From positions 176,700,001 through 176,764,000 of the forward strand of contig NC_091980.1 in the NCBI RefSeq assembly GCF_044704955.1: 64,000 nt of DNA, read 5' to 3'. Each line of letters begins with the position of its first letter. The stretch's first letter is position 1. Shown piece after piece: positions 15,153-37,140 of the stretch. Position numbers and translations under genes: made by a program. Under the pieces are notes generated by a model. The model worked only from the letters and a program-made list of their open reading frames with translations, was not told the DNA's origin and made no database searches. This DNA comes from Pristiophorus japonicus. Lineage: Eukaryota.

Positions 15153-15356
15153 GACAGTGTGATGGAGCTGGATTAACATCAGTAGAGATACAGTCAGTAA
15201 CACAGGATGCTGGGGGAGGGGTTACTGAGTGACAGTGTGATGGAGCTGGATTAACATCAGTAGAGATACATTCAGTAACACAGGGTACTGGGGTAGGGGT
15301 TACTGAGTGACAGTGTGGGGGAGCTGGATTAACATCAGTAGAGATACAGTCAGTAA
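15153..15356. repeat. 78-bp minisatellite, ~2.6 copies
   Basis: Units start at 15153, 15231 and 15309 (gacagtgtg...gctggattaacatcagtagagatac). Confidence 0.92.
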
Positions 15357-18197: not shown

Positions 18198-18392
18198 ACT
18201 GCCGGCAGCCATTGCAACCAGAAAATGGCGGCTTTGCTTGCCACCCCACACCCTGCTCCAAATTCGTGGCCAGCACGGTCATCGAGTACTTCTGCGACGA
18301 GGGCTACACACTGAAGAGAGATTACAAATTCCTGACCTGCGAGGATGGAGAGTGGCAGCCCCCGATGGAGGTCAGCTGCAGGTTCAACCCAG
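18198..18392 (+). CDS. SUSD6: SUSD6 exon encoding the Sushi/CCP domain
   Basis: ttctttgcag|AC...CCAG|gtcagt; encodes CRQPLQPENGGFACHPTPCSKFVASTVIEYFCDEGYTLKRDYKFLTCEDGEWQPPMEVSCRFNP, closely resembling vertebrate SUSD6 (KIAA0247/DRAGO) as I recall it. Confidence 0.95.
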
Positions 18393-19332
18393 GTCAGTGC
18401 TGGAACCTGGGAACAACTTCCATTTATATAGCGCCTGTCACGACCTCGGGGCGTCCCAAAGCGCTTTACAGCCAATTAAGTAATTTTTGAAGTTGTAATG
18501 TAGGAAACGAGACAGCCTAATTGCGCACAGCAAGCTCTCGTATCCATCAATGAGATAATGTTGGCGAGGACACTGGGGAGAAAGCCCCTGCTTTTCTTCG
18601 AATATTGCGGTGGGATCTTCCACCTGAGAGGGTAGACAGAGCCTCGGTTTTACTGACGCCAGCTTTTTAAAAGTGAATTTAAATTCTCAAACTGGCATGG
18701 TAGAATTTGGACTTGCGCTCTCTGGATTACTGGCCCCAGAAAATGGGGGCTTCGCATGCCACCCTCCGCGTGTACACCACTCTTGATTGCCCACGCAAAG
18801 AGAATTTTGTTAACCCATCAACCATCTTAACGGTTATGGTAGCATTGTGATTATGTTACTGGACTAGTAATCCAGAGGTCTGGACTAATGATCCAGAGAC
18901 GCAAGTTCAAATTTAAATTAAGTTAATGAAATCAATCTGGAATAAAAAGCTAGTGTCAGTAACGGTGACCATGAAACTATCGGAGTGTCGTAAAAACCCA
19001 GCTGGTTCACTAATGTCCTTTAGGGAGGAAATCTGCCACCCTTACCTGGTCTGGCCTACATGTGACTCCCGATTCTTAACTGCTCTCTGAAATGGCCTAG
19101 CAAGCCACTTAGTTGTACACAACCGCTACAAAAAACAACAATATAAATAAAACCGGACGGACCACCTGGCATCGACCTCGGCACCGTCTACGGACACGAC
19201 AACGGCACACCCATCCCAGTCGACCCTGCAAAGTGCTCCTCACTAACATCTGGGGACTTGTGCCAAAATTGGGAGAGCTGTCCCACAGACGAATCAAGCA
19301 AGAGTCGGATATAGTCATACTAATGGAATTTA

Positions 19333-23555: not shown

Positions 23556-24335
23556 TACAGCTACAACACTGACATCAACCTAACAATACGGAAAACCGCC
23601 CAGCTATGTCCTATCCACAAAAAGCAGGACAAATCCAATCTGGCCAATTACTGCCCCATAAGTCAACTCTCAATCATCAGCAAAGTGATGGAAGGTGTCT
23701 CCGTTGACAGTGCTATCAAGCAGCACTTACTCACCAATAACCTGCTCACTGATGCTCAGTTTGGTTTCTGCCAGGACAACTCGGCTCCAGACCTCATTAC
23801 AGCCTTGGTCCAAACATGGACAAAAGATTGAATTCCAGAGGTGAGGGGAGAGTGACTGCCCTTAACATCAAGGCAGCATTTGACCGAGTGTGGCATCAAG
23901 GAATACTAGTACAATTAAAGTCAATGGGAATCAGGGGGAAAACTCTCCACTGGCTGGAGTCATACCTAGCATAAAGGAAGATGGTTGTGGTGGTTGGAGG
24001 TCAATGATCCCAGCCCCAGGACATTGCTGCAGGAGTTCCTCAGAGCAGTGTCCTAGGCCCAACCACTTTCAGCTGCTTCATCAATGACCTTCCCTCCATC
24101 ATAAGGTCAAAATGGGTTTGTTCGCTGATGATTACACAGTGTTCAATTTCATTCGCAACTCCTCAGATAATGAAACAGTCCATGCCCGCATGCAGCAAGA
24201 CACCAACGCTGCCTCCGCAACCCCTTCAGCCTGATTTACACTGAGTATTTTAGATTATTGGTCACATGGCATTGTTAAAACCTGTGATTTACAGATGTAC
24301 AGGTGTGCTAATTCTGTTTAACCTCCTCCATTTAG

Positions 24336-24474
24336 GTAAAGACGCAGGAGCCAGTATTGGAGTCCCGACACTGTCAATAGTTGCGTCCACTGCCAGCTCT
24401 GTCGCCCTGATCCTCCTCCTGGTGGTTTTATTTGTTTTACTGCAACCAAAACTGAAATCGTTTCACCACAACAG
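24336..24474 (+). CDS. SUSD6: SUSD6 exon encoding the transmembrane helix
   Basis: ccatttag|GT...ACAG|gtgagt; encodes GKDAGASIGVPTLSIVASTASSVALILLLVVLFVLLQPKLKSFHHNR; phases fit both neighbouring exons. Confidence 0.96.
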
Positions 24475-24499
24475 GTGAGTGAAGAGCCAGCAGAAGGGC

Positions 24500-24812
24500 A
24501 TGAGAGTCTGGGTCACTGGGGGGGAGGGGGGGTATTGTGAGTCTGGGACACTGAGGGAAGGGGGGGAGGTGGACTGTGAGTCTGGGACACTGGGAGAGGG
24601 GGGTGATGTGTGTCTGGGTCACTGGGAGGCGGGGGGGTGATGCGAGTCTGGATCACTGGGGTGGGGGGTGATGTGAGTCTGGGACACTGGGGGTGGGGGG
24701 TGATGGGTGATGTGAGTCTGGGACACTGGGAGGTGGGGGGGGGTGATGTGAGTCTGAGTCACTGGGAGAGCGGTGGGGGGGGGGGGGGCGGGGGGAAATG
24801 CGAGTCTGGGAT
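24500..24812. repeat. Degenerate G-rich minisatellite (gtgatgtgagtctgggacactgggg..), ~8-9 copies
   Basis: Directly visible just after the TM-exon donor. Confidence 0.85.
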
Positions 24813-25086
24813 TGTGGGGGTAGGGGGTTGGCGGCGAGGTGATTCCGGGACCTTGTTATGGAGCCAAGGCGGATAGATGAAGTTAACAGACAGATCAGTC
24901 ATGATCTAATTGAATGGTTGAACAGGCTCGAGGGGCTGAATGCCCTCCTCCTGTTCCGAATGTTCCTCAAGGCTTCCTGAGGTCTTGGTCAATGTGAAAG
25001 CTCCACTTGACCTAACCGTGTGTGTGTGTCTCTGTTCCCAGGTGAGATCAGGGAGCCTAATCTTGTGTATTTGTGTCTGTCCCCAG

Positions 25087-25508
25087 GCGAGATCAGGGAG
25101 TGTCGGGGGATCAAGTGTCCATTGTGGTGGATGGGGTTCCCGTCTCGCTGCCCTCCTATGAAGAAGCCGTGTACGGCAGTTCGGGTGCTGCCATCCCACC
25201 TTCTGGTTCCCGTGTGCAGATAGTGATGGCGGAGGGGCCAGTCCCAGTCCCGGGAGGGGAGGGTCCGGGGGACGGCGCACACCACAGCAGAGGTGCCGAC
25301 GACTGCCCGGAATGCCCCACGGACGGTGAAGCCCACGGCAGCGGCAGCCGCTCAGAGACTGTTTTGATTCATCAGCCTGCCTTCTCCTCGCCTGCGCACT
25401 CTCGCAGATCCGCGCTGAGGCTGTCGCGGTCTACGGATACTCAGGACTCCGAGAACAGTGACGTACAGAGTCTTCTGTCCCTCGCCTCCCCTGTGGGATC
25501 TACTGACG
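25087..25508 (+). CDS. SUSD6: SUSD6 exon encoding the cytoplasmic tail
   Basis: tgtccccag|GCGA...GACG|gtaagc; encodes RDQGVSGDQVSIVVDGVPVSLPSYEEAVYGSSG...DSENSDVQSLLSL. Confidence 0.96.
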
Positions 25509-25614
25509 GTAAGCTGCCGCCTCCGACTGGTCTGGGCTTTTTTTGTATAGGACTTTGACTGAACAAGGGGAGGATGAATTGGGCGAAGTCCTGGTTGGGA
25601 TGAGTTTGGATAAC

Positions 25615-26030
25615 AACAACTTTCATTTATATAGCGCCTGTAACGTAAAACATCCCAAGGCACTCTACCGGACAGTTATCAGACAAAATTTAACACTGAG
25701 CCTGAGCCACATGAGATATTAGGACAGGTCAAGGAGATAGGTTTTAAGGAGCATTTCAAAGGAGGAGAGCGAGGTAGAAATGTGGAGAGGTTTAGTGATA
25801 GAATTCTTAGGGCAAAACTTAGGTCCTCAGCAGCTGAAGGCATGGCAGCCAATGGTGGAGTGATAAAAATCGGAGCAGATAAGAATTGGAGCAGTGCTGA
25901 GTTCTTGGAGGATTGTAAACTCGAGGTGTTGCCGGACCCAGAGCCTATGTAAGTCAGCAACCACAGGGGTGATGGGTGAGCAGAACTTGGTGCGAGTTAG
26001 GATCCAGGCAGCAGAGTTTTGGATGAGTTC
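25615..26030 (-). mobile_element. L2 LINE 3' fragment
   Basis: aacaacaactttcatttatatagcgcc tail and L2 body. Confidence 0.8.
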
Positions 26031-29900: not shown

Positions 29901-29926
29901 ATATTCCTTTGCTCAAGGATGCGTAA
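29901..29926 (+). CDS. SUSD6: SUSD6 last coding exon (DIPLLKDA*)
   Basis: ttttgtttcag|AT ATT CCT TTG CTC AAG GAT GCG TAA; phase fits the previous exon and matches the known SUSD6 C-terminus DDIPLLKEA. Confidence 0.93.
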
Positions 29927-35989: not shown

Positions 35990-37140
35990 GGGCTATACTA
36001 TGTCAGCCATTATTCCTGGCTGCTTTTTCTATGCAGTGTTGAGCTGGAAGAAGGCTTATTGATGAGCATTTTGAGCGTAATCGAAGAGGTTGCAGATGTA
36101 TGGGGAGGAGGCCTTCAACGAGTTTACAGGCAACAGCACTCATACCTGCAGCTCTCTGAGGCACAGTGCATTAGAAGGCTGCACTTCCAAAAAGAGGCGG
36201 GCCCAGGAATATGCCAGCTCATAAAGGCAGGCCTACAGCCTCCCAGCAGCAACAGGACTGCACTGTCCATCAAGGTGAAGGTGACTGCGGCACTTGCCTC
36301 CGGCTCCTTTCAGGCATCAGCGGGGGACATATGCTCCATCTCGCAGTATGCTACACATTGCTGTATTCGCCAGGTGACTACTGCACTGTGCGCACGCAAG
36401 ATGGACTTTATAAACTTCTCAATGACCAAGGAGGCCCAGAATTAGAGGGCTGTAGGTTTTGAATGAATTGCTGGCTTCCCCAAGGTTCAGGGTGCCTTTG
36501 ACTCTACGCACATCGCCCTGCGAGCACCTTTACAGAATGCAGAGGTTTACCGAAACCAAAAGTGATTCCTCTCCAAGAACATATAGATCGTCTGTGACTA
36601 TACTCAGCGCATAGTGGCAGTCAATGCCCAATATCCAGGGAGCATCCATGATGCCTTCATCTTGCGTGAGAGCACTGTCTCAGGCCTGTTCGAATGTCAA
36701 CCCCAAGGCCAGAGCTGGATGCTGGGGGTCAAAGGTTACGGCCTAGTCACCTGGCTCATGACCCCCCCCCCCCTCGGAACTCTCAGACAGAAGCCGAGCA
36801 TCGCTATAATGAAAGCCATAGAGCCACACGCAACATCTTCGAACAGACAACTGGAGTGCTCAAGCAGCGCTTCCAATGCCTGGACCACTCTGGAGGATGC
36901 CTGCAATACTCCCCTCAGCAGGTCTCTGAGTTCATTGTGGTGTGCTGCATGCTACACAACTTAGCCATCATGAGGGGACAAGAATTGCCAATAGGGACTG
37001 CAGGACCATCTCAGGAGAGAGGGGAGGAGGGGGACGAGGAGCCTGGCGAGGAACCCATGCCACCACCACCATGGCCTCGTGCAGCTTTCGCCAATGCAAA
37101 AGCCTTACATCAGCAGCTCATAATTCAATGCTTTGCTTGA
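35990..37140 (+). pseudogene. Harbinger (HARBI1-like, DDE_Tnp_4) transposase pseudogene
   Basis: ASGSFQ, GFPKVQGAFDSTHI, YPGSIHDAFILRES, GVKGY (degenerate GDxGY), YNESHRATRNIFEQTTGVLKQRFQCL, CCMLHN; several stops and frameshifts. Confidence 0.92.

Follow-up and report, generated by a model that had tools for sequence, protein, structure and literature searches.

A tandemly duplicated 3′ splice site in SUSD6 of Pristiophorus japonicus with a probably inert upstream copy

The boundary between an intron and the cytoplasmic-tail exon of SUSD6 in the shark Pristiophorus japonicus is duplicated in tandem, in two head-to-tail 45-nt units that both keep the signals of a 3′ splice site. The upstream copy is probably (with a probability of roughly 0.72) a neutrally decaying decoy, used at noise level at most, with the downstream copy serving as the acceptor in all three transcript assemblies. 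The attribution of the gene to SUSD6, made in an earlier sequence-only reading of this DNA, is borne out by the exon 3′ of the duplication, which encodes a 140-residue piece with 100% identity to P0001, a UniRef protein whose label is sushi domain-containing protein 6-like, Pristiophorus japonicus. The features involved are given below in coordinates of the window, that is, the whole 64-kb stretch of DNA analysed; a slash within a motif marks the splice boundary.

18198..18392, + strand: SUSD6 sushi-domain exon (tblastn of P0001; Pfam Sushi PF00084).
24336..24474, + strand: SUSD6 transmembrane (TM) exon, donor CAG/GTGAGT (tblastn, transcript contigs).
24475..25086, + strand: intron of 612 nt with a G-rich minisatellite, a dispersed repeat and the decoy acceptor (TRF, transcript contigs).
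25011..25055, + strand: upstream unit of 45 nt, consisting of the decoy acceptor and a copied 14-nt exon start, part of the intron in the transcripts seen (TRF, comparison; no transcript-contig depth at 25002–25083).
25039..25047, + strand: CAG/GTGAGA, where the decoy AG runs into a donor-like motif (agreement at 8/9 positions with the donor consensus CAG/GTRAGT, used for all match counts here).
25043..25045, + strand: TGA, the stop that a message spliced to the decoy would meet first in frame; its counterpart in the downstream copy is CGA, at a CpG (sequence comparison).
25056..25100, + strand: downstream unit of 45 nt, in which the working acceptor leads into the genuine exon start, 14 bases long (joint 24474->25087, GT..AG, in X5, X6 and X7).
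25058..25060, + strand: TAA, the second in-frame stop, inside the working branch-point motif CTAAT and independent of the C>T change (sequence reading).
25087..25508, + strand: cytoplasmic-tail exon, 422 nt, with LPSY at 25148–25159 (residues 166–169) (tblastn, transcript contigs).
29901..29926, + strand: coding part of the last SUSD6 exon, DIPLLKDA-stop (tblastn).

Mapping of P0001 placed none of its N-terminal exons within the 64-kb window. The tail exon is flanked by introns of 612 nt upstream and 4392 nt downstream, and the SUSD6 junction region is nearly invariant among 17 sequences aligned. The search with the 140-residue piece found 235 relatives, 120 of which were listed; among the 120 homologous proteins fetched, 115 read RR across the junction, with the motif missing in three and differing in two. 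A paralogue that would make this copy of SUSD6 dispensable was rejected, as the tail exon matches the genome at one place only. The SUSD6 sushi exon has one other match, a sushi-type exon of 44% identity at G000:C7:216773438-216773623 (minus strand), which probably belongs to another sushi-domain gene. Some 340 nt past the sushi exon, a 29-nt intron piece (18736–18764) is 89.7% identical to part of it (in-window E 8e-4), with all three differences at third codon positions (frame LAPENGGFACHP vs LQPENGGFACHP); the piece has no obvious acceptor, is not a common repeat and is possibly an old partial exon duplicate or a chance match.

TRF reported 25011–25100 as a tandem repeat of period 45 with 2.0 copies, 84% matches and no indels. 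Direct comparison found 38/45 identical bases between the two units, and at periods of 30 to 69 other than 45 the matches around the duplication never exceeded 27. Each unit is composed of 31 intron-derived and 14 exon-derived bases and carries a yTnAy branch motif (its A at 25015 and 25060, respectively), a GT/pyrimidine tract, CCCAG (AG at 25040–41 and 25085–86) and the first 14 nt of the tail exon, an anatomy which the sequence-only reading had described correctly. By crude counts of consensus matches, the measure of splice-site strength used throughout, the two sites are alike, with 14 pyrimidines in -23..-4 in the upstream unit vs 14 in the downstream unit, 10 of them T in each, and equal branch spacing. 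The copies differ at seven positions, of which 25043 (T vs C) belongs to the 14-base exon part and the other six to the 31-base intron part. At the junction the downstream copy reads AG/G CGA and the upstream copy AG/G TGA, giving CAG/GTGAGA. The duplication was also recovered in DNA run X3, where contig record 8 spans 24930–25641 including both units with 0 other letters and 0 gaps, and TRF, direct comparison and this contig agree that it is real. Run X3 derives from sample S1, possibly the source of the assembly, so the copy number of two, as in the assembly, comes from one run and perhaps from the same animal rather than a second one. The longest identical stretch common to both copies is 12 bases, and a 31-mer assembly therefore cannot confuse them.

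Four of the 20 listed runs were examined, the DNA run X3 and the transcript-like runs X5, X6 and X7. The latter three come from the same organism and one study, with tissue and library type unrecorded, and are read as transcriptomes because of their exon-only cover and GT..AG joint. The joint 24474->25087 (GT..AG, 612 nt skipped) is the sole junction here in 3/3 of these runs, at contig depths of 21.3 (X5), 162.4 (X6) and 47.3 (X7), and none of them has transcript-contig depth at 25002–25083. In 25049–25095, the depths of 5.43, 41.5 and 12.1 compare with 5.44, 41.46 and 12.08 expected from the 12 bases of the canonical contig alone; the depth is thus fully explained by that contig, and no contig uses 25042. 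Among the 15 joints shown (of 41), none leads to or from 25042, splicing intermediates not being expected in contigs. In both X5 and X6 a single contig joins the TM exon to the tail exon, with no difference in depth, and neither run has a contig that skips the tail exon. The X7 contig breaks at 25141, not at the junction, and no run breaks at the junction. At 25141, X5 and X6 carry a synonymous C>T (Pro), which is likely an allele, and the break in X7 may be an allele bubble. Branching paths can presumably leave traces in contigs, and none appears at the junction. It is reported that Logan contigs drop single-copy k-mers and simplify the graph (PMC12424806, excerpt). Contigs of this kind drop rare isoforms, NMD would thin a decoy isoform further, and a minor form could go unseen. 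A cryptic exon ending at 25041 was also considered and rejected, as no YAG with at least 11 pyrimidines was listed in 24475–25000.

Splicing from 24474 to 25042 would add 45 nt in frame, beginning AGG TGA GAT CAG GGA GCC TAA, and would shorten the product from 293 residues to 145. The two stops would be separated from the last junction by 463 and 448 nt, respectively. Premature stops more than ~50–55 nt upstream of the last junction trigger NMD, and the decoy isoform is likely NMD-cleared. The expectation of the sequence-only reading that use of the upstream AG would bring a stop right after the TM exon, with loss of LPSY, is sound, the first stop being 463 nt before the last junction. Its further proposal that the CpG C>T change creates the poison is refuted, because the in-frame TAA at 25058–25060, which that reading had overlooked, would truncate the decoy isoform regardless; without the C>T, the isoform would read R-R-D-Q-G-A-stop. 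As this TAA belongs to the branch motif CTAAT of the working acceptor, the decoy isoform would have been truncating from the moment of duplication.

The history we propose for an inert upstream copy begins with local slippage or unequal crossover, which would have copied 31 intron and 14 exon bases of the SUSD6 boundary. From the outset, any message spliced to the upstream AG would have been truncated and likely cleared by NMD, so that a duplication allele without dominance of the downstream site could not have lasted. What likely favours the downstream site is that it adjoins the full 422-nt exon and lies nearer to that exon's donor, in line with exon definition. In the classic globin experiments of Reed and Maniatis in 1986, a duplicated acceptor with a short exon piece reportedly loses to the outer site. 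The unused copy would then have gathered ordinary changes, including the CpG C>T that happened to give both TGA and GT. The step in which the downstream site wins is the one open to objection, since the decoy is no weaker on crude counts and is predicted to be more accessible. When folded locally at 15 and 37 C, the decoy tract is predicted to be more open than the working tract (unpaired 0.64–0.66 vs 0.32–0.34), and RNA structure hiding the decoy was accordingly discarded as the explanation of the choice. Also against an inert decoy are the reports, in excerpts of their sources, that where human 3′ sites compete the upstream one is usually preferred, a bias that exon definition lowers and does not reverse (PMC9225289), and that AGGT dual sites show synergy and no mutual blocking (PMC10809524), together with the finding that GTRAG directly follows the AG in 0/115 background decoys.

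The differences between the copies (6/31 intronic vs 1/14 exonic) give a Fisher p of 0.41, a weak test at 45 nt, and the chance that the five key signal bases escape seven random changes is likewise 0.41. By this within-pair test, which has little power, the upstream copy is not detectably under selection. The inter-copy distance of 0.17 (raw 95% range 0.065–0.295) suggests that the duplicated pair is not very recent. C>T at CpG is the commonest kind of mutation; the change at 25043 sits in a CpG, and CpG o/e is 0.47 in 200 kb of this genome, a sample of twenty stretches of 10 kb that come from 15 contigs. An AG/GT overlap, rare among random decoys (0/115), needs just one transition in the true exon start, GCGAGA. 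The same 200 kb held three distinct two-copy duplications of period 30–150 (four TRF rows, one locus appearing twice), which puts the frequency of a given 30-nt acceptor block lying inside such a unit at ~1 in 7,100. At 190,000 acceptors, the human exon count implied by an excerpt of PMC6224609, roughly ~27 duplicated acceptors (Poisson range 5–78) would be expected per genome. On this rough base rate, an acceptor inside a tandem duplication is rare per gene and expected per genome. A simple acceptor filter gave 0.29 acceptor-like decoys per kb per strand, and at 17–31 kb of the window it picked four further sites besides the decoy and the four true acceptors.

The upstream acceptor might instead take a sizeable share of splicing, with NMD clearing the product and a lower SUSD6 dose being tolerated, all of this unregulated. 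Such a leak would fit decoy signals that are intact and comparable to those of the working site, a general preference for upstream 3′ sites (PMC9225289, excerpt), two stops placed far before the last junction (463 and 448 nt) and contigs from which minor paths are dropped (PMC12424806, excerpt). However, no contig and no contig break marks the junction even at depth 162, and comparable duplicated boundaries yield no aberrant mRNA in amphioxus (PMC3087553, PMC3902484). The strength and openness of the decoy, the upstream-site bias and the AGGT synergy nevertheless keep an NMD-masked leak alive as an outside chance, the best placed of the alternatives.

The sequence-only reading had favoured a switch in acceptor choice between full-length SUSD6 and an NMD target or tailless isoform, by which cells might tune SUSD6 and hence WWP2/TMEM127-dependent MHC-I turnover. 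Human SUSD6 acts with TMEM127, and its binding to WWP2 requires Y177 of L174-P-S-Y177 (PMC12720080, excerpt); a decoy isoform would lack the corresponding LPSY, and regulated use of it would make the SUSD6-TMEM127-WWP2 pathway of a cartilaginous fish adjustable through loss of the tail that bears LPSY. Such regulation is improbable, well below the leak in our estimation. The downstream junction alone was found in 3/3 transcript-like runs, the upstream copy bears no sign of selection, and the stop is a by-product of the duplication. Neither the decoy peptide nor a protein ending at the junction occurs in the 120 fetched homologues, protein sets that seldom hold NMD isoforms, and 115 of these read RR. 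By general knowledge, AS-NMD poison events that arise through an alternative 3′ splice site have premature stops far upstream of the last junction, as here; that kind is marked by inclusion, regulation and conservation, and what the SUSD6 decoy is seen to share with it is the stop placement.

A still slimmer prospect is that a splice to 25042 rebuilds a strong donor, CAG/GTGAGA, from which splicing proceeds again and takes out the 45-nt piece in one case and the entire tail exon in the other. The first outcome would restore normal SUSD6 mRNA; the second, with joining to 29901, would give a frameshifted tail with a stop in the last exon. The rebuilt donor has 8/9 consensus matches vs 6/9 for the tail exon's own donor, and the route would be invisible in mature junction counts. 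According to excerpts of the sources, an RPS2 exon whose start was changed from GC to GT became recursive once eIF4A3 was knocked down (PMC6224609) and human introns of 43–56 nt are spliced (PMC4463651). On the other hand, just 18 nt would separate the donor from the branch A25060, rebuilt donors are normally repressed by the EJC (PMC6224609, excerpt), and X5 and X6 carry the TM and tail exons on one contig at equal depth with no skipping contig. It is equally doubtful that the CpG C>T made the spare acceptor recursive and so changed a poison site into a step that proofreads or tunes MHC-I turnover; mis-spliced transcripts would then return to normal SUSD6 mRNA by removal of an ultra-short 45-nt intron, or at low EJC activity would lose the WWP2-binding tail exon. 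Were the GT change self-correcting, the locus would show a harmful duplication neutralised by recursive splicing.

The dual 3′/5′ splice site noted in the sequence-only reading does exist as a motif. The authentic TM-exon acceptor (24335–24341) is AG/GTAAAG, and the sushi/TM junction rebuilds a donor-like CAG/GTAAAG with 7/9 consensus matches, a putative RS-exon. In humans, 3.6% of exons rebuild a donor at their junction and 93.8% of those are constitutive (PMC6224609, excerpt). The AG/GT overlap is unremarkable because this junction and 3.6% of human exons have one too. Recursive-splicing exons and dual-specific AGGT sites, as described in excerpts of PMC6224609 and PMC10809524, share with the SUSD6 decoy an AG/GT core that would rebuild a 5′ site after a first splice; as the contigs contain no acceptor or donor use of the decoy, the likeness is one of motif.

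An assembly error as the origin of the tandem duplication is ruled out for practical purposes by the seven differences between the copies and the single DNA-run contig that holds both without change.

The inert-decoy reading has close company in the mirages of amphioxus, tandem repeats across an intron-exon boundary in which AG/GT signals are kept and splicing is undisturbed (PMC3087553, PMC3902484). As in BflGb6, the SUSD6 unit joins the 3′ end of an intron to the 5′ start of an exon; its size of 45 nt and identity of 84% compare with known ranges of 10–160 nt and 81–100%, and the spare unit keeps the branch motif, tract and CAG. Normal SUSD6 splicing is apparently undisturbed in 3/3 transcript-like runs, in contigs that could miss rare forms. 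In contrast to the amphioxus cases, SUSD6 has two units only, belongs to a shark and not a cephalochordate, and has a spare unit turned into an AG/GT overlap. Copy-number instability is a feature of the amphioxus mirages, and the SUSD6 repeat is known as two units in the assembly and one DNA run. The locus thus has the structural features of a mirage and matches a poison event or a recursive site in motif only. A further parallel is the 37-bp VNTR in IVS7 of human F7, where, in the excerpt of PMC1557585, a boundary repeat makes look-alike sites, the identical duplicated 5′ splice sites stay silent and only the one adjoining a full exon is used; that repeat has many identical donor copies, whereas SUSD6 has one diverged acceptor copy. 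The titles and abstract starts searched, a coverage that excludes most subscription journals, make no mention of a SUSD6 acceptor duplication or a shark mirage. The SUSD6 locus is probably undescribed, yet its kind is already known from amphioxus. If the upstream copy is an inert decoy, as is most likely, the duplication matters little and offers a clean vertebrate example of a tolerated duplicated acceptor. The pair could also serve as a natural minigene with which to study what makes one 3′ site prevail over a similar one.

Several minor features of the window may be recorded. The 612-nt intron contains a G-rich minisatellite (24500–24780, period about 36–39), whose five GTGAGT donor-like motifs (24537, 24576, 24673, 24712 and 24748) are not used in the transcript contigs. 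An open frame at 36670–37137 has a transposase-type domain, DDE_Tnp_4 (PF13359), with E 1.2e-12, and a short tandem duplication of period 78 lies at 15153–15356 (2.6 copies, 94% matches). SUSD6 itself carries a second small duplication at 25239–25250, where CCAGTC occurs twice; this 6-nt in-frame repeat gives PVPV in the tail, two residues more than in the other sharks aligned.
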